Below, in pieces: positions 8,802 to 36,165 of a DNA stretch of 39,429 nt. Both the position numbers and the translations under genes were made by a program. Origin of the DNA: Candidatus Bilamarchaeaceae archaeon. Its GTDB lineage: Archaea > Micrarchaeota > Micrarchaeia > Anstonellales > Bilamarchaeaceae. Under the pieces are notes generated by a model. It did not search any database and had not been told where the DNA came from. It saw only the letters and a list, made by a program, of their open reading frames with translations. Numbering within the stretch: the first letter of the stretch is position 1; every line of letters begins with the position of its first letter. Location: positions 1 through 39,429 of the forward strand of contig DATDTS010000070.1 in assembly GCA_035290745.1 (NCBI GenBank), written 5' to 3'.

Positions 8802-10622
8802 ATGAAAGATTTATTTACAGATAAAACTCAGTGTTTCATATACAATCTAAAACCAATTCCAATTCAACGAATGCTTGATTTTGATTATCTTTGCAGGAGA
8901 ACAACACCAAGTGTAGTAGCTGTTATTGCACCAGGTAAAGCAGGCTCTCTCAAAGCTTTTTTTGGTGCAAAAGAAATATTAATTCCAGTTTATGATAGCA
9001 TAAAAGAAGCTGTAAAACTAAATCCTTCTGTTGATGTTTTTGTAAATTTTGCATCTTTTAGAAGTGCTTATGACTCTTCTTTGGAGGCACTTGAGTCCGA
9101 TTCGATCAAAACTGTTGCAATTATTGCTGAAGGAATTCCAGAAAGACTAACCAAACAGCTTATAGCAGTTGCAAAGAAAAAGAACAAATGTATTATAGGC
9201 CCTGCAAGTGTTGGTGGGTTATCAGCAGGTAAATTTAGAATAGGAAATACTGCTGGAACAATAGAAAATATAATCGCATGCAAGCTTTATCGGCCAGGCT
9301 CAGTTGGTTTTGTATCAAAATCCGGAGGCCTTTCAAATGAAATGTTTAATGTTATCTCAAGAAATGCTGATGGAATTTACGAAGGAATTGCAATTGGTGG
9401 GGATGCATATCCTGGTTCAAGATTAATAGATCACATCTTACGATTTGAGAAAATTCCAGATATAAAAATGATTGTTGCACTTGGAGAAGTTGGAGGTACC
9501 GAGGAATATGAAATTACAGATGCACTGAAAACTAACAAAATTACTAAACCAGTTGTGATGTGGGTTACTGGAACCTGTGCAAAAGTTTTCCCTGGAGAAG
9601 TCCAATTTGGGCATGCTGGTGCAAAAACCGGCGATGAGAAGGGCTCTGCTGATGCAAAGAACTCTGCCCTAAGAGAAGCAGGAGTTATCGTTCCAGATTC
9701 TTATCAGGATTTTGATGTCAAAATAAAACATACTTTTGATTCTTTGAAAAAACAAGGAAAAATAAAAGAAATCAAAGAACCCGGATTTCCAGAAATGCCT
9801 TTGGAATATACAGTTGCATTAAAGCAGGGTAAGATAAGAAAAGCAACAAACTTTATATGTACAACCTCTGATGATCGCGGTGATGAGCCACATTATGCCG
9901 GAATTCCTATGACTAAAATGATTGAGGAGAATTATTCATTAGGAGATGTTATTTCACTTTTATGGTTTAGAAAAAGACTTCCGTCATATGCAAGTAAATT
10001 TATTGAAACTGTTCTATTGATAGTAGCTGATCATGGCCCATGTGTAAGTGGTGCACATAATGCTATTGTCTCATCAAGAGCTGGAAAAGATCTTGTTTCT
10101 TCTCTTTGTTCTGGTTTATTAACCATTGGTCCAAGATTTGGTGGAGCAATTGATGATTCTGCGCGGTTCTTTAAACATGCTTGTGATTCAAAAACCCAAC
10201 CAGACGAATTTGTTGAAGACATGAAGAAAAAAGGGATCAACATTCCTGGAATTGGCCATAGAATCAAATCAGCAAAGAACCCTGACAAAAGAGTTGAGAT
10301 ACTTAAAAATTATGCAAAAAAGCATTTTCCACATACAAAATATTTGGATTATGCTCTTTTAGTTGAAAATGAAACACTAAAGAAAGGTGACAACCTTATA
10401 TTAAATGTCGATGGCACCATTGCAGTTTTATTTTTGGATTTGATTGATGGATGTAAGATTTTTTCAAATGAAGAATTTGACTCTATTGTTGATGTTGGCT
10501 ATTTAAATGGGTTATTTGTTCTGGCTCGTTCAATTGGTATCATGGGCCATGTTTTTGACCAAAAGAGGCTGAAACAACCATTGTACAGGCATCCATGGGA
10601 CGATGTATTATTTTTAGAGTAG
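8802..10622 (+). CDS. aclA: ATP-citrate lyase, large (SCS-alpha-like plus citrate-synthase-like) subunit
   Basis: CoA-binding/SCS-alpha part with phosphohistidine loop VQFGHAGAKTG. C-terminal citrate-synthase-like domain ending LYRHPWDDVLFLE. AAAGGTGAT lies before the ATG. Confidence 0.9.
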   Translation: MKDLFTDKTQCFIYNLKPIPIQRMLDFDYLCRRTTPSVVAVIAPGKAGSLKAFFGAKEILIPVYDSIKEAVKLNPSVDVFVNFASFRSAYDSSLEALESDSIKTVAIIAEGIPERLTKQLIAVAKKKNKCIIGPASVGGLSAGKFRIGNTAGTIENIIACKLYRPGSVGFVSKSGGLSNEMFNVISRNADGIYEGIAIGGDAYPGSRLIDHILRFEKIPDIKMIVALGEVGGTEEYEITDALKTNKITKPVVMWVTGTCAKVFPGEVQFGHAGAKTGDEKGSADAKNSALREAGVIVPDSYQDFDVKIKHTFDSLKKQGKIKEIKEPGFPEMPLEYTVALKQGKIRKATNFICTTSDDRGDEPHYAGIPMTKMIEENYSLGDVISLLWFRKRLPSYASKFIETVLLIVADHGPCVSGAHNAIVSSRAGKDLVSSLCSGLLTIGPRFGGAIDDSARFFKHACDSKTQPDEFVEDMKKKGINIPGIGHRIKSAKNPDKRVEILKNYAKKHFPHTKYLDYALLVENETLKKGDNLILNVDGTIAVLFLDLIDGCKIFSNEEFDSIVDVGYLNGLFVLARSIGIMGHVFDQKRLKQPLYRHPWDDVLFLE

Positions 10623-10775
10623 AGAGTCCTGTGGAGAAGTGAACGTAGTTCACCAAGATCCATGGGACGACGTATTATTTTTGGATTAGCAAAATCCCAT
10701 GGAGAAGTGAACGTAGTTCACCAAGATCCATGGGACGACGTATTATTTTTAGAGTAGAGAGTCCCTTGGAGAAAA
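10591..10775 (+). repeat. tandem repeat, period 67/68 bp, about 2.7 copies, starting inside the last 11 codons of aclA
   Basis: Copies start at 10591, 10658 and 10726 (ATCCATGGGACGAYGTATTATTTTT..). Each full unit carries an extended hairpin (10627-10667 and 10696-10734) with core GTGAAC-GTA-GTTCAC (10639-10653 and 10707-10721), followed by a T5 run. Confidence 0.9.
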
Positions 10776-17257: not shown

Positions 17258-17365
17258 AATTAAAAACGCTGAGGGCCAGATCGGAACCGCAGGGGGACAC
17301 CCCCTTCAGTTTGACGCTCTTCCTGATTTCCCCGACTTTTGAATTAAAAACGCTGAGGGCCAGAT
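17258..17365 (-). repeat. direct duplication (24/24 nt, 84-nt spacing) of the tRNA 3' exon plus oligo-T terminator
   Basis: AATTAAAAACGCTGAGGGCCAGAT occurs at 17258-17281 and again at 17342-17365. On the minus strand each copy reads AUCUGGC-CCUCAGC-G-UUUUUAAUU. Confidence 0.9.
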
Positions 17366-17644
17366 TTTCAACATTGCACCTCTTGGTTGCAAGGGGTGCG
17401 GGGCCCGCTGGGGTCCTGCTTTGAACTGGCGATCCTTTCGGACACGCTTCCCGAACCGCTGGGAAACTACGTTTCCCCTCGGTTTGAGGTTCCCGATGGA
17501 ATTCCATTCCATGGGCCCATTGAACACGGTTCAATTGGGCTTCCTGATCCCCTTCCTTTTGGGATTCAGAAAAAGTTCCAGGCCTACGCTTCTAATTGAA
17601 GATTCAATTAAAATGTGCGCACTACCAGGTTATGCGACCTCAGC
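17351..17644 (-). tRNA. interrupted class II tRNA gene, best reading tRNA-Ser(GGA), 294-nt locus with at least two long insertions
   Basis: Minus strand. The acceptor stem GCUGAGG (17644-17638) pairs 7/7 with CCUCAGC (17358-17352). Discriminator G at 17351 is followed by U5. U8 is present. The D arm is canonical: GCAU-AACCUGGUA-GUGC (17635-17619). The T stem GCCAG (17430-17426) is followed by UUCAAA, then a 55-nt insertion, then U-CUGGC (17364-17359). The only canonical anticodon arm is AUGGA-AUGGAAU-UCCAU (17512-17496), with anticodon at 17505-17503. The variable-arm region is unresolved. Confidence 0.5.
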
Positions 17645-17655
17645 GAATGAAATGA

Positions 17656-17694
17656 GCTGAGGGAATTGAACAAGCAGTTCAATAAGACCTCAGC
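17656..17694 (-). other. 39-nt leader minihelix copying the acceptor strands of the downstream tRNA
   Basis: The minus strand reads GCUGAGG-UCUU-AUUGAAC-UGCUU-GUUCAAU-UC-CCUCAGC. An 11-nt spacer UCAUUUCAUUC (17655-17645) follows, then tRNA position 1 at 17644. Confidence 0.6.
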
Positions 17695-24265: not shown

Positions 24266-24376
24266 CTTTAATCACCTATAAAAATAGATGAGTAATAATT
24301 GAAGCAAAAGATATTTATAACTATTTATACCTTTGTTTTGTTTTAGGTCAATTTAGGTACTTAAAAATAGAAAAAT

Positions 24377-24488
24377 CGCCCCCACTGGGATTTGAACCCA
24401 GCTTCCAAGATCCGCAATCTTGTGTTCTTTCTGTTTTTCAAGCCTTTAAAATCATAAACTTGGAATATCCAGGCTATACTATGGGGGC
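24377..24488 (-). tRNA. tRNA-Arg(GCG) with a roughly 41-nt insertion at a non-canonical site (between positions 26/27 and 30/31)
   Basis: Minus strand. Acceptor GCCCCCA pairs with UGGGGGC, followed by discriminator G. D arm GUAU-AGCCUGG-AUAU. Intact anticodon arm CAAGA-UUGCGGA-UCUUG with U33 and G37. T arm CUGGG-UUCAAAU-CCCAG. The 41 nt between the D arm and the anticodon arm must be removed to give a 71-nt tRNA. Confidence 0.7.
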
Positions 24489-24623
24489 ATTGCATTACCA
24501 TAAAATTAGAATATTTAATAAATTAAATCTTTACTACCCAAATAACACAAGAAAGCCAACTAGTGACACCACAAGATCTCTCTTGGTTTGACGTTACTAA
24601 AATTTCTTTCCTCTGAGGAAAGG

Positions 24624-27330: not shown

Positions 27331-27369
27331 GCAGGGATCTTATTGAACATTTTGTTCAATTCTCCCAGC
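27331..27369 (+). other. 39-nt leader minihelix copying the acceptor strands of the downstream tRNA
   Basis: Reads GCAGGGA-TCTT-ATTGAAC-ATTTT-GTTCAAT-TC-TCCCAGC. An 11-nt spacer AGTTCATTCAT (27370-27380) follows, then tRNA position 1 at 27381. Confidence 0.6.
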
Positions 27370-27380
27370 AGTTCATTCAT

Positions 27381-27709
27381 GCAGGGATGACGGAGCGGTC
27401 AAAAGCTTTTTGGCTACTTATAAACATTTGCCAAAAACCTTGGAAAAAGGCATATTGCAATTCTTTAGTGTGGCTGTCCAAACGTGCTAGGTTGAGGTTC
27501 TTTTGGATTAGCAAGTCCGTTTTTGGACTCGCTTTTCCTAAAAAGCGAGAGCCTAGTGGCTTAGTGCTTGCGAGAAACTTTTGACTTCGGTCATTCATAC
27601 GCCAAAAGTTTCATCAAAAGGCGTAATGTTCGCATAAGTTCGAACCTTCGCCAACTTTGTTGGTGAATTTTTAACGAAGCACAGCGAAGTTAAAACCTCT
27701 CTCCCTGCA
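27381..27709 (+). tRNA. interrupted class II tRNA gene, best reading tRNA-Leu(GAG), 329-nt locus with three long insertions
   Basis: The acceptor stem GCAGGGA pairs 7/7 with TCCCTGC (27702-27708), with discriminator A at 27709. The 5' end GCAGGGATGACGGAGCGGTCAAA has a Leu/Ser-type D loop. D stem ACG closes with CGT only after skipping 79 nt (27404-27482). The anticodon arm is CTAGG-TTGAGG(T) at 27487-27498, closing with CCTAG at 27552-27556 after about 53 nt. The anticodon GAG is at 27494-27496. The long variable arm is TGGCTTAGTGCTTGC. T stem GAGA(27572-27575)+G(27689) pairs with CTCTC after about 113 nt. Predicted mature length is 84 nt. The T loop TTAAAAC is atypical (A at position 56), so the 3' part is the weakest. 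Confidence 0.55.
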
Positions 27710-29197: not shown

Positions 29198-29213
29198 CTA
29201 TTTACCTAGTCCA

Positions 29214-29351
29214 TCAGTCACACGCGCATTTGTTTACTTGATATTCTTCCCTGTCTTCAAACTCCTGTTTTTTACCAACATTCCAATTTTGGACTGGTCT
29301 AAAGTATCCAACTATTCTACTATATACCTCTGTTTCTTTTCCACATTTCAT
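29214..29351 (-). CDS. stand-alone glycyl-radical C-terminal segment of NrdD (45 aa, not in the ORF track)
   Basis: My translation is MKCGKETEVYSRIVGYFRPVQNWNVGKKQEFEDREEYQVNKCACD. It contains the class III RNR glycyl-radical motif (SRIVGY) and the conserved RPVQNWNxGK. AAAGGTGATT lies 3 nt upstream of the ATG. Confidence 0.75.
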   Translation of the reverse strand: MKCGKETEVYSRIVGYFRPVQNWNVGKKQEFEDREEYQVNKCACD

Positions 29352-29375
29352 TTAATCACCTTTATTTCAATTGGA

Positions 29376-29407
29376 GGTGAGCAGTGAACGTAGTTCACTC
29401 AATCACC
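29376..29407. repeat. extended hairpin with core GTGAAC-GTA-GTTCAC spanning the stop codon of the large nrdD ORF
   Basis: GGTGA-GC-AGTGAAC-GTA-GTTCACT-CAA-TCACC. The same 15-nt core as at 10639-10653 and 10707-10721. The core here is at 29384-29398. Confidence 0.85.
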
Positions 29408-31446
29408 TTTTCGATTATTTCTTCTGATTGGTGAGGACATGTAAAATGTTCCCCTTTAATATAACCATGTTCCGGACATACACTAAACGTCGGGGTTATG
29501 GTGAAGTAAGGTAGTTTGAAGTTAAATGCAATTTTTTTGACTAATTTCATTGTTGTTTTCCAGTCATCAATTCTCTCGCCTAAAAACGAATGAAGTACGG
29601 TTCCTCCGGTATACAAAGTTTGGAATTCGTCTTGATGTTCCAAGGCTTCAAATACATCTTCTGTAAAATTAACTGGAAGATGAGTTGAATTAGTATAATA
29701 TGGTCTTTCTCTAGTGCCAGCAGTTATTATATCCGGATACAATTCCCTATCTTTTTTTGCAAATCTATACGTTGCAGATTCACATGGCGTAGCTTCAAGG
29801 TTGTAAAGATTTTGTGTTTCTCCCTGGAACACCTTAATCTCACGTCTTATAAACTCCATCACCTCAACTGCAAAAATCTTTCCCTTTTCTGTTTCTATTC
29901 CTTCTCCCATAAAATTTAGTAAAGCTTCATGCATTCCATTAATTCCAATTGTTGAGAAATGGTTTTGATAAGTTCCAAGAAACTTCTTTGTGAATGGCAT
30001 TAATCCAGCTTTAACATTTGCTTCAACCACCTTTCTTTTTATTTCAAGTGATTCCTTTGCAATTTTTAATATATACCCAAGCCTTTGAAAGAATTCTTCT
30101 TTAGTCTTAGCAATATACCCTATTCTCGGAAGATTTATTGTAACAACTCCTATGCTTCCAGTTTGATCAGCTGCCCCAAAAAGTCCGCCCATCTTATTTT
30201 TTAACTCTTTCAGATCAAGTTGAAGTCTGCAGCACATACTTCTAATATCAGATGGTTTTAGAGTACTGTTTATAAAATTCTGGAAATATGGTATCCCATA
30301 TTTTGCCGTCATTTCAAATAACAATCTTGCATTTTCTGATTCCCAGTTGAACTCATTTGTTATATTATAGGTTGGGATTGGATAAAAGAAAGCCCTTCCT
30401 TTTGCATCGCCTTCAATCATTACCTCAATAAATGCCTTGTTTATCATGTCCATTTCTTCTTGGCATTCACTATACGTAAATGTTTGTAGTTCTCCACCAA
30501 CAATTGCTGGTTCATCTTTCATATCTTCAGGCACTATCCAGTCAAAAGTAAAATTTGTAAATGGTGCCTGGCATCCCCATCTGCTTGGCACATTCAATGA
30601 AAAAACCAACATTTGAATATTTTGCTTTACTGTTTTGTATTCCAAGCCATCTTTTTTTATGAATGGTGCTAATAAGGTATCAACTGAGGAAAATGCTTGT
30701 GCTCCTGCATGTTCCATCTGCATTGTTCCTAAAAAATTCACCATTTGAACAACTGCAACCTCTAAATGTTTAGGTGGTAATGAACTGATCTTTTTTGGCA
30801 CACCACCAAACCCTGTTAATAATAAGTTTTTCAGTGACCATCCACAACAGTACCCAGTTACTCCGTACCCTAAATCATGAATATGCATATCACCATTTCT
30901 ATGTGCTTGGGCTACATTATCAGAGTAAATCTCATTAAGCGTATAATTTGCAATAATCTTTCCAGCAATATGAGACATCAAACCTGAAAAGGAATAATCA
31001 GAATTGCTGTTTTCATACACTCTCCAGTCAGTTTTTTTTAGGTATTCATCCATAGTATTCCTTACTTCTACAAATCCCCCTTGTATATTTCTAATCTTCT
31101 CATGCTGTTTTCTGTATAAAATATATCCCTTTGCAGTCTGGGCATATCCCTCTTTTATAAGTACTTTTTCTACTATATCTTGAATTTGTTCTACTGAACA
31201 TAATGCATTTTTACCATAAGCATTTTCCATTTCTTCAATTACTTTATTTGTGAGTTCGTCAGCTATCTTTTCCCCGAACTCTTGTGTTGTTTTAGCAGCA
31301 CTATAAATAGCATTTTTTATTCTTGTTTTATCAAATTTTACAATCCTCCCATCTCTCTTCTGTATAAACTGTGGTGTCTCAGATTTTGTGTTCATATTTT
31401 TCATCTCCATCTCTTTTGTGCATTTTATATTTTTAAAGGTTTCCAA
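29395..31446 (-). CDS. nrdD: anaerobic ribonucleoside-triphosphate reductase NrdD, large fragment lacking the glycyl-radical end
   Basis: ATP-cone (IQKRDGRIVKFDKTRIKNAIYSAA) and class III RNR core. The ORF ends ..FSVCPEHGYIKGEHFTCPHQSEEIIEKVIE, in the middle of the zinc-ribbon region. The true start is probably one of the ATGs at 31410, 31404 or 31395 rather than the TTG at 31446. Confidence 0.9.
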   Translation of the reverse strand: METFKNIKCTKEMEMKNMNTKSETPQFIQKRDGRIVKFDKTRIKNAIYSAAKTTQEFGEKIADELTNKVIEEMENAYGKNALCSVEQIQDIVEKVLIKEGYAQTAKGYILYRKQHEKIRNIQGGFVEVRNTMDEYLKKTDWRVYENSNSDYSFSGLMSHIAGKIIANYTLNEIYSDNVAQAHRNGDMHIHDLGYGVTGYCCGWSLKNLLLTGFGGVPKKISSLPPKHLEVAVVQMVNFLGTMQMEHAGAQAFSSVDTLLAPFIKKDGLEYKTVKQNIQMLVFSLNVPSRWGCQAPFTNFTFDWIVPEDMKDEPAIVGGELQTFTYSECQEEMDMINKAFIEVMIEGDAKGRAFFYPIPTYNITNEFNWESENARLLFEMTAKYGIPYFQNFINSTLKPSDIRSMCCRLQLDLKELKNKMGGLFGAADQTGSIGVVTINLPRIGYIAKTKEEFFQRLGYILKIAKESLEIKRKVVEANVKAGLMPFTKKFLGTYQNHFSTIGINGMHEALLNFMGEGIETEKGKIFAVEVMEFIRREIKVFQGETQNLYNLEATPCESATYRFAKKDRELYPDIITAGTRERPYYTNSTHLPVNFTEDVFEALEHQDEFQTLYTGGTVLHSFLGERIDDWKTTMKLVKKIAFNFKLPYFTITPTFSVCPEHGYIKGEHFTCPHQSEEIIEKVIE

Positions 31447-31461: not shown

Positions 31462-31638
31462 ATTAAATTTTGTGGTCTAAAAAGTAATTTTTATTGTGTG
31501 AAATAGATGTGACTTGAGGGTCTCATGAGTAAGATGATTTTATGTGCTCAATTCAGTAACCGTTTTTTGCTTACCTTACACCACGCTCTTAAAATCAATA
31601 GATTTAAAGGAATTAATTGTGATTTTTTTGTGTTTGAC

Positions 31639-32616
31639 ATGACTATCGACAGGAAAATTAGGGAAGAAGTTCTTGAAGCTATCCTAAAAGCAGGTTCTGA
31701 CGGATCAACCATCACAGAAATAGAGAAGAAAACCAAATTTGAGCGTCATACCCTCTCTAAATACCTAATTATTATGGCTGCCCATGGTCTGATCTACTTC
31801 AAGCAATTTGGGAAAGCAAAGGTTTGGTATGTGAACAAGGTTCCTCTTCAGAAAACCCTTGACCCAACCCACAATACCAAATCTGTTGGTGAAACCTTTC
31901 TCTCTAATATATTATCACATCTTCCATATGGACTTGTTGTTATTGATTTAGATCACAACATACTTTTTGCAAGCAATAATTTAACTGAAAGATACGGAGA
32001 TTTGGGCAATAAAAAATTTTATTCATCAATTCTTGGAAACCAAAATCCGCCTTCGCTTAAGAAATTAGAACAACTTTTTAAGGGAAATTTAAATTTAGTT
32101 GAATTTAAATTGGGTGACAAAGAAGGCAGAATCTTAAATATAAAAGCATCTAGAGTCACCAATCCAGACAAAACTACTTCTTTTGCCTTAATAATTGATG
32201 ATATTACCGAAAGGATAAAATCACAGGAAGAATTGTTTGAAAGAAAAAGTTTATTGGAAAGTGAGAGAGCTGCTCTTAACGAATCTGCAATTGTTGCTGA
32301 AACTGATTTACAAGGAAGAATAACCTATGTTAATGACAAATTTGTAGAGATTTCAGGCTATTCTACAGAAGAACTTCTTGGTAAGGATCATCGTATTATA
32401 AACTCAGGTTATCATTCAAAATCATTTTTTAAAAATATGTGGTTAACAATCTCATCTGGGAAGGTATGGAAAGGCATTATACGAAACAAGGCCAAAAACG
32501 GATCTTTTTATTGGGTTGATTCTTCTATTGCTCCAATCCTTGGTAAAAATGGTAAACCTGTTAAATATCTAGCAATTAGGTTTGATATAACAAAATGGTT
32601 AGATAAAAAAGGGTAA
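31639..32616 (+). CDS. winged-helix plus tandem PAS domain regulator
   Basis: N-terminal wHTH-like region (ILKAGSDGSTITEIEKKTKFERHTLSKYLIIMAAHGLIY). C-terminal PAS/PAC (ITYVNDKFVEISGYSTEELLGKDHRIINSG.., GSFYWVDSSIAPI). The ATG at 31639 is preferred over 31525. Confidence 0.7.
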   Translation: MTIDRKIREEVLEAILKAGSDGSTITEIEKKTKFERHTLSKYLIIMAAHGLIYFKQFGKAKVWYVNKVPLQKTLDPTHNTKSVGETFLSNILSHLPYGLVVIDLDHNILFASNNLTERYGDLGNKKFYSSILGNQNPPSLKKLEQLFKGNLNLVEFKLGDKEGRILNIKASRVTNPDKTTSFALIIDDITERIKSQEELFERKSLLESERAALNESAIVAETDLQGRITYVNDKFVEISGYSTEELLGKDHRIINSGYHSKSFFKNMWLTISSGKVWKGIIRNKAKNGSFYWVDSSIAPILGKNGKPVKYLAIRFDITKWLDKKG

Positions 32617-34512: not shown

Positions 34513-36165
34513 CTAACCTGCTTTTACTTTTTTTAATCTTCTAGCTTCTAATTGATACTGCTTTCCTTGTTTTGCCTTTAGATTAACTGCTTTTGCTATC
34601 ATTCCTGCTACTAAACGGTATCTTTGAACTACTTCATCTCTTTTTTCAGGAAATCTCAAAACATTTATCCTATCTCGCAGAAATCCTGATTCAATCAGTC
34701 GCCTCTCTTGTCTAGTTGTTATATCATTAAAGTCAAGTCCTACTAGACTTGCCAATGCTTTTGGATCATGCATAGCATAAGCTGGTTCCAGGTTAATTGG
34801 ATTTTCAATTAGTCTTCTTACATAAGCAGTTTGTAACTCATCTAATATCGGATGTTTTGCTCCGCTATTAATCAAGTGTTCTTCTCTTGTTAATTTTGGT
34901 ATTAATATTGAATGTCTATTATCCTCCTCAGCTCTTGCTCTCATGCACTCTACATATTCATCTAGTTCATGTACCTTAGATATAGATCTAATATGAATTA
35001 TTTGTGCACCAGTTCCTGTGAAAAAAACAGCTTCTGCTTTGTATAATTCTTCCGGAGGTAAAGATTTATATCTAACCTTTATCCCTCTTTCTTCAAGTGT
35101 TTGAATCATCCTTAGTCTTGTCGTTCCCATTAATGGACCATCACTAAGAGGAGGGGTATAGCAAACATACTTATCTCCCTCTTTAACCATTACAAATAAA
35201 TTTTCCGCGGATCCTTCTACAGCTAAACCACTCCTATTAAGTGCAATGATCTCTCCATACCCTAAAATTACTCCTACATTTATGTTAAGCAGCGAATTGA
35301 TATAATGACCATCTAACTTTCTTCCTGTAAAAAATCCATTACCAATTCTTTCAAATGGACCAATAACTACATCTAATCCAGTTTGGTAATGTTCATCCTT
35401 CAAATATTTACCCCAAGGTTGTGTGCTTACCCCCCAAGCAAACGGTTTTGCAACAAACCTTTCTTCAACGTTGGCTACTGTCGGAACCCCAAGACCTCCT
35501 TCTGAAGATACCCAAAAATGAGGCCGTATATATCCTGATCTAGTCATCAATAATCCTTTTTTGAAATAATCTCTTGAGACAAGTCCGTTTAGAAAAACAA
35601 GTGCTTTTATTGCAGCATCGATCTCAAATGCAGTATACTCCCTAATTTGTCCATCTAAAACAGTTTTTAGTCTCCATGGAAATTCAATTTTTTTTCTTCC
35701 CTCAGGAGTCTCAATATAAAACCAGAGTGTTGGTTCACGTCCTTCTTTTAATGCTTCTGTTATATCTCTAAATATCTCAACATCACTTCTGTGTGGACAT
35801 TCCACGTTTCCTGCGTTTGCATTTGTTAATAGTTGAATTGCAATATCTGGTTCTACCCCAGTAAAACTGAATAGAAATCTTGCAATATTCCAAGAAAGAT
35901 TTGGAAATACTGATCCAAATGGTGAATAATAAACTCTAACTCCTTCAAACCCATCTGCAGAGTAATGAAGTGGGTATGCACTTGTGCTAACTACAGATAG
36001 TTCTGGACGTACAAATCCGTTTAAAAGGCTTGAAAAAACAGCTATAGCTTCTCGATCTGTTGGAAACCTATCAACAGTAATTCCCTCAACTTGTATAATT
36101 CTAGTTTCAGGTAGCTTTTTCTTTTGACCAGTACGCAACAACAAATCTGCATCAAGTCTTTCCAT
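34513..36165 (-). CDS. fold-type IV PLP enzyme (branched-chain/D-amino-acid aminotransferase-like), unusually long at 550 aa
   Basis: BCAT-like blocks: LHYSADGFEGVRVYY, GYIRPHFWVSSEGGLGV, GRKLDGHYINSLL (candidate PLP Lys), EGSAENLFVMVKEGDKYVCYTPPLSDGPLMGTTR, AEAVFFTGTGAQI. There is an insertion of about 100 aa and a C-terminal extension of about 130 aa. Confidence 0.65.
   Translation of the reverse strand: MERLDADLLLRTGQKKKLPETRIIQVEGITVDRFPTDREAIAVFSSLLNGFVRPELSVVSTSAYPLHYSADGFEGVRVYYSPFGSVFPNLSWNIARFLFSFTGVEPDIAIQLLTNANAGNVECPHRSDVEIFRDITEALKEGREPTLWFYIETPEGRKKIEFPWRLKTVLDGQIREYTAFEIDAAIKALVFLNGLVSRDYFKKGLLMTRSGYIRPHFWVSSEGGLGVPTVANVEERFVAKPFAWGVSTQPWGKYLKDEHYQTGLDVVIGPFERIGNGFFTGRKLDGHYINSLLNINVGVILGYGEIIALNRSGLAVEGSAENLFVMVKEGDKYVCYTPPLSDGPLMGTTRLRMIQTLEERGIKVRYKSLPPEELYKAEAVFFTGTGAQIIHIRSISKVHELDEYVECMRARAEEDNRHSILIPKLTREEHLINSGAKHPILDELQTAYVRRLIENPINLEPAYAMHDPKALASLVGLDFNDITTRQERRLIESGFLRDRINVLRFPEKRDEVVQRYRLVAGMIAKAVNLKAKQGKQYQLEARRLKKVKAG

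Follow-up and report, generated by a model that had tools for sequence, protein, structure and literature searches.

What are the short hairpins with a common GAAC/GTTC stem top that recur along a 39,429-nt contig of a Candidatus Bilamarchaeaceae archaeon (DATDTS010000070.1, assembly GCA_035290745.1; this whole stretch is called the window hereafter), and how did one of them come to lie at the junction of the split class III ribonucleotide reductase gene nrdD? The original prediction, made from the window alone, had taken them for protein-recognised or mobile hairpins resembling repetitive extragenic palindromes (REPs) or miniature inverted-repeat transposable elements (MITEs), which might have seeded insertions in tRNA genes and rearrangements at nrdD and at the ATP-citrate lyase gene aclA. 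Comparison with related contigs indicates that they are probably lineage-specific, non-autonomous mobile palindromic elements of a Micrarchaeota-like DPANN archaeon. This reading is based on strain polymorphism, on empty orthologous sites and on copies dispersed in both orientations, and also on a copy inside a tRNA gene, on inverted doublets and on the lineage specificity of the family.

A hairpin family in excess of chance expectation

The 15-nt core GTGAACGTAGTTCAC is present three times in the window (10639–10653, 10707–10721 and 29384–29398), exactly where it had been reported. The search, which tolerated up to two mismatches, gave these 3 matches where 0.04 were expected, and not one of 100 shuffles contained as many. 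The two copies at aclA are units of one 68-nt tandem repeat and the 15-mer therefore represents two independent loci, not three. The wider motif TGAAC-N3-5-GTTCA gives six sites (0.17 expected), which are precisely those listed before; for the sister motif ATTGAAC..GTTCAAT the positions 17519–17535 and 27342–27360 were right, while the site placed at 17664–17682 lies one base further on, at 17665–17683. A 20-mer, GAG(A/C)AGTGAACGTAGTTCAC, is common to aclA and nrdD, two loci 19 kb apart.

Outside the window, GAAC-N3-GTTC is found 34 times (1.3 expected) in 117 kb of low-GC contigs, a set biased by the 13 loci that were retrieved via the motif itself, and once in 52 kb of loci from related species of Micrarchaeota. 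The half-sites are not enriched (TTGAAC, 42 observed and 43 expected; TGAAC, 105 observed and 104 expected), and a signal of the DNA uptake type was rejected since the half-site is not over-represented. In viral contigs the two family motifs have no match and the 15-mer has 102 hits, each single and taken as chance, as was the only match of the 20-mer in the genome_contigs collection. That the whole similarity is due to chance, or is an artefact of assembly or sequencing, is in practical terms refuted. In its favour, the 15-mer by itself is frequent in large collections, as the viral hits illustrate, and the ends of several contigs fall within or next to the aclA repeat; against it, the observed counts were not reached in any shuffle, and the nrdD hairpin is identical in eight contigs and the aclA repeat is carried by seven, these contigs coming from different samples and assemblers.

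The basic unit of the family has a stem of 7 bp, which ends in GAAC/GTTC, and a loop of 3–5 nt; an outer CCC/GGG stem and a one-base bulge are often present. Single units are seen at aclA, at nrdD and in two hairpins upstream of tRNA-type domains. Four hairpins make up a module of about 120–190 nt with covarying stems and with linkers kept across modules (e.g. gcgtgct, gcatc, cggaccc and cgggaag). Conservation of the stem sequence itself, as proposed originally, holds for the recurring stem top GAAC/GTTC; neighbouring hairpins of the same module vary in sequence and remain perfectly paired. All copies are intergenic, past a stop codon or in an insertion of an RNA gene, and their orientation with respect to the host genes is inconsistent (sense at aclA, antisense at nrdD, antisense in the window tRNA gene and sense beside the tRNA gene of L144; labels L005 to L159 denote the related or motif-bearing contigs used for comparison). 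The proposed location at gene 3' ends applies to aclA, whereas the nrdD hairpin, an antisense copy within an operon, lies where the large open reading frame (ORF) of the split gene ends.

A multi-hairpin element that is present or absent between strains

The interval between the aminotransferase gene and nrdD exists in at least four haplotypes across the assemblies. Alignment revealed a 187-nt insertion upstream of nrdD in L112, L117 and L140 that is absent from the window, L113 and L115, so that three assemblies carry the element and three lack it, which is the polymorphism between strains that had been put forward as a check. The comparison of filled and empty sites spans independent ENA, Logan and JGI assemblies, and the junctions between both alleles are clean. 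The element of L140 (JGI) differs by a few substitutions, and its far flank is not the same. In a fourth haplotype a hairpin island of about 400 nt replaces the PAS-domain gene (L114:138–535 compared with 31536–32602 of the window). From strain to strain, the 187-nt module moves or disappears as one block.

The predicted fold of the 187-nt element contains six hairpins (z = -6.7). The element holds CCCATTGAACgtaGTTCAATTGGG and an oppositely oriented CCCAGTGAACtccGTTCACTCGGG, which pair with each other in the minimum-free-energy fold, and CAGTGAAC-N3-GTTCACTC is common to its CCCAGTGAACtccGTTCACTCGGG side and to the nrdD hairpin. The module was aligned among this element, the window island at 17.4–17.6 kb and the islands of L114, L150 and L144. 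Features of the window are collected in Table 1.

Table 1. Positions of the hairpins, associated repeats and tRNA features along the window
Feature	Position	Strand	Remark
68-nt tandem array X1-H-X2-H-X3	10591-10773	+	aclA 3' end, 2.7 copies
Extended hairpin 1, TCCTGTGGA-GAA-GTGAAC-GTA-GTTCAC-CAAGA-TCCATGGGA	10627-10667	+	read from sequence
Extended hairpin 2, TCCCATGGA-GAA-GTGAAC-GTA-GTTCAC-CAAGA-TCCATGGGA	10695-10735	+	read from sequence
22-nt direct repeat TTAAAAACGCTGAGGGCCAGAT	17260-17281, 17338-17359		tRNA 3' end and trailer
tRNA gene with insertions	17351-17644	-	acceptor, D arm and T arm clear
55-nt intron, tRNA position 59/60	17365-17419	-	canonical bulge-helix-bulge; not a family member
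~160-nt insert in anticodon region (approximate ends)	17446-17607	+	partial module copy, antisense to tRNA
M1 hairpin GCCCATTGAAC-ACG-GTTCAAT-T-GGGC	17515-17540	+	one-base bulge on 3' side
Hairpin GCTGAGG-GA-ATTGAAC-AAGCA-GTTCAAT-AAGA-CCTCAGC	17656-17694	+	single, 11 nt upstream of tRNA 5' end
Hairpin GCTGGGA-GA-ATTGAAC-AAAAT-GTTCAAT-AAGA-TCCCTGC	27331-27369	-	single, 11 nt from structured domain
10-nt direct repeats AATCACCTTT	29354-29363, 29401-29410		flank 37-nt hairpin-bearing insert
Hairpin GGTGA-GC-AGTGAAC-GTA-GTTCACT-CAA-TCACC	29376-29407	+	split-nrdD junction, antisense to nrdD
Empty site	31572-31573		other strains carry 187-nt four-hairpin element (L112:5254-5440)

The nrdD hairpin and the split of the gene

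The nrdD gene (29198–31395, minus strand) is split into ORFs of 666 and 45 amino acids. The large ORF ends ..FTCPHQSEEIIEKVIE* and its stop codon (29395–29397) is contained in the 3' arm of the hairpin. The 45-codon ORF (approximately 29203–29340) starts MKCGKETEVYSRIVGYF and holds the last zinc-site cysteine together with the glycyl-radical motif. Intact NrdD homologues read ..CPxCGxxTEVYSRIVGY at this end; about 45 of the closest homologues (64–75% identity) likewise stop just after ..GEHFxCP, with variable tails; they come from DPANN, with some others annotated as Margulisbacteria. In the related species L121 and L122 the small glycyl-radical ORF has a Shine-Dalgarno sequence of its own and an ATG overlapping the stop codon (AAGGTGATAAAATGAAATGT and GGAGGTGAGAGTATGAGATGC, respectively), and no hairpin is seen at either junction. 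Related species share the split without the hairpin; therefore the split predates the hairpin, and the hairpin must be discarded as the cause of the nrdD rearrangement, the same split being present in about 45 homologues and at two hairpin-free related loci. Judged from these homologues, the split is an old, clade-conserved two-ORF arrangement, and the enzyme appears to be a conserved class III reductase in two pieces, for which the literature search yielded no description. The separate, clade-conserved glycyl-radical peptide may matter more for enzymology than the hairpins do.

What distinguishes the window locus is a stretch of 47 extra nucleotides, formed by the hairpin core and a second, diverged copy of the ribosome-binding region. 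This stretch corresponds to one AATCACCTTT repeat plus the insert and is missing from L121 (AAGGTGATAAAATGAAATGT; L122 was also compared). The Shine-Dalgarno/ATG junction (AAAGGTGATT) is present in duplicate at the window nrdD. An mRNA intron in nrdD (85 nt between CP and KCG) was considered and rejected, as the split is shared by related species and no bulge-helix-bulge motif restores the frame.

Target-derived arms at aclA and the other single copies

The array at the aclA 3' end alternates two units. X comprises 48 nt, namely the last 32 nt of aclA (..HPWDDVLFLE*, stop codon at 10620–10622) and, at its end, the downstream inverted copy TCCCATGGA, the reverse complement of the TCCATGGGA with which X begins. 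H corresponds to GTGAACGTAGTTCACCAAG. Each extended hairpin is built from the end of one X, H and the start of the next X, and the outer arms are TCCTGTGGA/TCCATGGGA, with two G-U pairs, in the first, and TCCCATGGA/TCCATGGGA in the second. The arms are complementary yet differ in sequence at nrdD and at both aclA copies, as had been described. The number of H units is one in L005, two in most assemblies and at least three in L009, a second polymorphism between assemblies. In L157 and L159 (AclA 77% and 72% identical) the same terminal peptide is present, but H and the inverted copy are both missing after it, which makes them additions of the window lineage.

Other candidates were examined at these loci. 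A terminator-like arrangement fits aclA, where the hairpin is followed by ..TTATTTTT; an intrinsic-type terminator was rejected because the nrdD site lies inside the nrdD-nrdG operon and has its T-rich side on the other strand. A CRISPR-like array at aclA (68 nt as 29 + 39) was rejected since its 'spacers' are copies of the gene end, and variable and template repeats of a diversity-generating retroelement were rejected since a reverse transcriptase is absent and the differences between the copies show no specificity for adenine.

The single copies have a common layout, in which a target is followed by a short spacer, an inverted copy of the start of the target, the hairpin core and a direct repeat of the target. 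This layout is exact in three of the four single copies when the core is read as GA(A)-stem-loop-stem-(C)AAGA, and the nrdD copy has the same elements without the GA/AAGA internal loop. The layout, with its target-derived arms, explains why the outer arms are complementary and at the same time locus-specific. A K-turn (L7Ae-binding) in the GA/AAGA loop was rejected by hand, its geometry being one base off and the loop not being conserved at nrdD.

Such a layout could also arise without transposition, if quasi-palindromes grew locally by replication template switching and slippage, with the GAAC/GTTC core as a mutational or structural preference and gene conversion making the identical copies. 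All single copies do lie in local duplications, with repeat lengths of 48 nt (aclA), 10 nt (nrdD), 22 nt (3' end of the tRNA gene) and about 12 nt (the hairpins that precede tRNA-type domains); the arms repeat adjacent sequence in inverted form and are missing in related species, and the tandem unit number varies between assemblies. Local growth without transposition is nevertheless quite unlikely, in view of the identical core of 20–21 nt at two unrelated loci 19 kb apart, of the 187-nt module that is present or absent as a whole with clean junctions, of the different flanks with which the module occurs and of the same 24-nt motif in many contigs of several metagenomes.

A module copy inside a tRNA gene

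The tRNA gene at 17351–17644 shows the acceptor stem GCUGAGG/CCUCAGC, the D arm GCAU-AACCUGGUA-GUGC and the T arm GCCAG-UUCAAAU-CUGGC, the last interrupted as UUCAAA[55 nt]U. The intron at position 59/60 has a central helix UUCA/UGAA, bulges AAG and AAU, and an outer helix that is the T stem itself. Introns at this position, cleaved in vitro, have been reported in tRNAs of ARMAN-2 (PMC3239211). The larger insert of about 160 nt contains GGGAAACtacGTTTCCC, ATGGAATtccATTCCAT, the M1 hairpin and CTGATCCCC..GGGATTCAG; that a module copy lies in antisense inside the tRNA gene argues for insertion and against a tRNA-related function. When the intron and the ~160 nt are removed, ARAGORN mostly calls tRNA-Leu(UAA), with several competing calls, a 4-bp anticodon stem and an approximate junction, and the gene could be decaying. 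The arms of the hairpin at 17656–17694 repeat the tRNA's own acceptor strands, and on the other side of the gene the TTAAAAACGCTGAGGGCCAGAT repeats flank a 56-nt insert with the hairpin AGGGGGacaCCCCCT.

The second island repeats this layout (hairpin, 11-nt linker, domain) on the other strand. Its domain of about 330 nt (27381–27709, plus strand) is GC-richer, very stable (z = -6.3) and closed by GCAGGGA (27381–27387) and TCCCTGC (27702–27708). Its 5' end is tRNA-like (GCAGGGAUGACGGAGCGGUCAAAA) and a possible anticodon arm reads CUAGG-UUGAGGU..CCUAG. No tRNA could be reconstructed from the domain, which has neither an Rfam match nor an ARAGORN call: single deletions or up to three deletions guided by bulge-helix-bulge motifs gave no call, and one deletion combined with an anticodon-loop intron gave none either, a weak negative (zero hits in about 1 s). 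ARAGORN in default mode and Rfam reported a tRNA at neither island. The 11-nt linker (27370–27380, minus strand) reads atgaatgaact or atgaatgaaat, a single-base difference between the window and L113.

The interrupted tRNAs of the original prediction hold for 17351–17644 on the minus strand and could not be substantiated for 27381–27709; of the link to tRNA insertions there remain two hairpins at one real tRNA gene, the first within its large insertion and the second 11 nt ahead of its 5' end. In L144 a four-hairpin module (911–1027) lies directly 3' of an intron-bearing tRNA-Ala gene (790–905) in the same orientation, which is a second association with a tRNA gene. It is conceivable, and in our judgement very unlikely, that hairpin units building locus-specific stems by target copying create or enlarge tRNA insertions and acceptor-mimicking hairpins when they land at tRNA genes, tolerated by a permissive splicing endonuclease. 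If so, the unusual disruption of tRNA genes in Micrarchaeota would have a source at the level of DNA.

The main rival is a family of functional structured RNAs, according to which the hairpins either belong to small RNA genes or serve pre-tRNAs and mRNAs as signals for processing or protein binding; selection on the RNA would keep the stems and the upstream hairpin would mimic the acceptor stem for a role in maturation. The folds are indeed very stable (z = -6.3, -6.3, -9.5 and -6.7), stem changes between copies are compensatory and linkers conserved, the aclA arms form G-U pairs on the plus strand, both upstream hairpins lie 11 nt from tRNA-type domains with arms that track the closing stem of each domain, and the islands are G+C-richer than the genome, like RNA genes of AT-rich genomes. 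We consider a functional RNA unlikely, since no Rfam family matches the hairpins or islands even at E <= 1, the orientation relative to host transcription is inconsistent, with one module in antisense inside a tRNA gene, and the module is dispensable, being missing in several strains and in related species. Moreover, nearly all stems are perfect Watson-Crick helices with 3-nt loops, more typical of DNA palindromes, and no bulge-helix-bulge motif surrounds the hairpins at aclA, at nrdD or the second upstream hairpin, a weak candidate being present only at the first upstream hairpin.

Spread of the family in metagenomes

The M1 motif used for scanning (CCCATTGAAC-N3-GTTCAAT-N-GGG, 24 nt) was found in 28 metagenome contigs and in no viral contig. 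Sixteen of the 28 are low-GC contigs of archaeal type (G+C 32–45%), and in these M1 always lies within intergenic strings of 7-bp hairpins with 3-nt loops between housekeeping genes. The hairpin beside M1 pairs perfectly in 13 of 13 copies, as read directly and without a formal pair count, MAFFT having lost the hairpin register.

The other 12 contigs are high-GC and bacterial, and 11 of them share one unrelated-looking repeat, counted here as one event and possibly due to chance. This repeat (..TTGTTTGAGCGAGTGATTGGGTT-CCCATTGAACGTAGTTCAATGGGG-CCCGTGCACGCGC..) presents the same 24-nt hairpin, often with a GTA loop, in DNA of 58–65% G+C; it is found in most of L131–L133, L136, L138, L139, L142, L143, L147, L148 and L153, the hairpin in L148 occurring without it, and has no plasmid match. 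In four contigs of the Ga018043x series (L129, L141, L145 and L156) M1 is located inside a conserved non-coding element of 400–500 nt (84–91% identical) upstream of a tiny ORF. L145 has two copies of this element, the second without M1, and there the element is followed by a PF05635 gene (23S rRNA intervening-sequence / Avd-like), a neighbourhood that may represent a diversity-generating retroelement context.

Nature of the elements and proposed mechanism

The family behaves as mobile or repeat DNA, as had been predicted. An enzyme encoded elsewhere would recognise the hairpin as single-stranded DNA or RNA; suitable candidates would be a Y1/HUH-type enzyme (RAYT/TnpA-like) or a transposase that targets TA. 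At or soon after insertion, copying at a quasi-palindrome, by fold-back or template switching, and subsequent tandem slippage may produce the target-derived arms and the long direct repeats. Insertions would persist where they are harmless, that is, past stop codons and at the intercistronic junction with a duplicated ribosome-binding site, and those in tRNA genes would also be tolerated, presumably being spliced out.

Several points weigh against mobility. No transposase or nuclease, whose presence nearby had been proposed as a check, is encoded in the window or beside any related island; the species is outside the GTDB representative set, and both the counts and the enzyme search cover the window and related contigs. 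The lack of the 187-nt element in some strains could reflect deletion rather than insertion, its terminal inverted repeat is weak, TACTGATCCAGAAAAG and the reverse-complemented opposite end, TAGCCATCCAACTAAG, agreeing at 10 of 16 positions, and a TA duplication at its ends is possible but ambiguous. The direct repeats of the single copies (10, ~12, 22 and 48 nt) are unusual for transposition, and differences in tandem-repeat units may be artefacts of short-read assembly. Finally, covarying stems and conserved linkers are also expected of a functional structured RNA.

If mobile palindromic elements are what these hairpins represent, even DPANN genomes of about 1 Mb carry active palindromic repeats, and tRNA genes, operon junctions and intergenic regions are remodelled by them at the level of strains. 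In metagenomic work the elements fragment assemblies, prevent standard finders from detecting tRNA genes and give rise to false 'gene ends'. The target-derived arms and the module inside a tRNA gene offer a testable link from selfish palindromes to the origin of archaeal tRNA insertions. To our knowledge such elements have not been described before in this lineage.

Genomic context

The window has a G+C content of about 34% and an archaeal gene content, including the S13-S4-S11-RpoD cluster, EF-1beta, FtsZ, Spt5, Cbf5 and ThiI, together with SHMT, aconitase, isocitrate dehydrogenase, ATP-citrate lyase and the class III ribonucleotide reductase. The nearest named homologues of AclA belong to Candidatus Micrarchaeota, and the DNA of the window recurs in many aquifer metagenome assemblies (ENA, Logan and JGI).

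Another tRNA gene, with a 42-nt anticodon-loop intron (24376–24489, minus strand), is found by ARAGORN only when introns are allowed; it is called Ile(tat), possibly of the CAU type, and has no family hairpin upstream. A class IV aminotransferase-like gene of 550 amino acids (34513–36165, minus strand) is intact in the window and in L127, and is called as two ORFs (225 + 295 amino acids, approximately the same total length) in L125, L126 and L128, which suggests a nonsense or frameshift difference at the strain level, as far as the ORF calls can tell.

Comparison with known systems

Membership in any one known family is not established, because no transposase is seen, the terminal repeats are weak and the direct repeats are long and variable. 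REPs and REPINs are repetitive extragenic palindromes mobilised by RAYT Y1 transposases. The hairpins of the window resemble them in being short imperfect palindromes with a bulge, multi-copy, extragenic, often located just past stop codons and lineage-specific, and in occurring singly, clustered or as inverted doublets able to pair, as in the 187-nt element. For archaea, computational work has reported REP-like palindromes (PMC12306157). The family differs from REPs and REPINs in that no RAYT or other Y1 gene is present in the window or beside the islands, and in that no conserved GTAG-type tetranucleotide stands at the foot of the hairpin, where the flanks differ between copies; GTAG is seen only inside the loop and 3' arm of copies with a GTA loop. 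Further differences are that neighbours in a module keep pairing and not sequence, that single copies have target-derived arms and direct repeats of 10–48 nt, and that the host belongs to the DPANN.

With MITEs the module shares its size (120–190 nt), its non-coding and highly structured nature, the filled and empty sites between strains and the copies at unrelated intergenic loci. The 187-nt element may also have a TA duplication, and its terminal inverted repeat is imperfect; the weakness of that repeat (10 of 16) and the ambiguity of the duplication set it apart, no parent insertion sequence is known, and the single hairpins of 15–40 nt are far below the size of any MITE. Elements derived from IS200/IS605 (PATE, omega-RNA) differ in that the core hairpins of the family are mutually inverted and are accompanied by neither TnpA nor TnpB. 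Archaeal bulge-helix-bulge tRNA introns are represented in the window by the textbook 59/60 intron of the gene at 17351–17644, in which the module occupies the second, larger insertion; the hairpin units, in contrast, are not bounded by the motif and also occur outside RNA genes.

Palindromic elements of Rickettsia are comparable GC-richer hairpins, and we know of no mechanism established for them or for the mitochondrial palindromes. Like the GC clusters of yeast mitochondria and the hairpin elements of sponge mitochondria, the family consists of GC-richer hairpins that invade a compact AT-rich genome, vary in copy number between strains, and merge and shuffle into composite clusters. In those mitochondria RNA genes and gene ends are invaded with function kept (PMC4478555, PMC2800124), and palindromic GC cluster units merge and shuffle into composite clusters (PMC4478555). 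The host domain is a different one here, there is no sequence similarity and the arms are copied from the target. Taken together, the hairpins of this archaeon resemble the selfish palindromic repeats known in bacterial and mitochondrial DNA rather than a new system of regulation.

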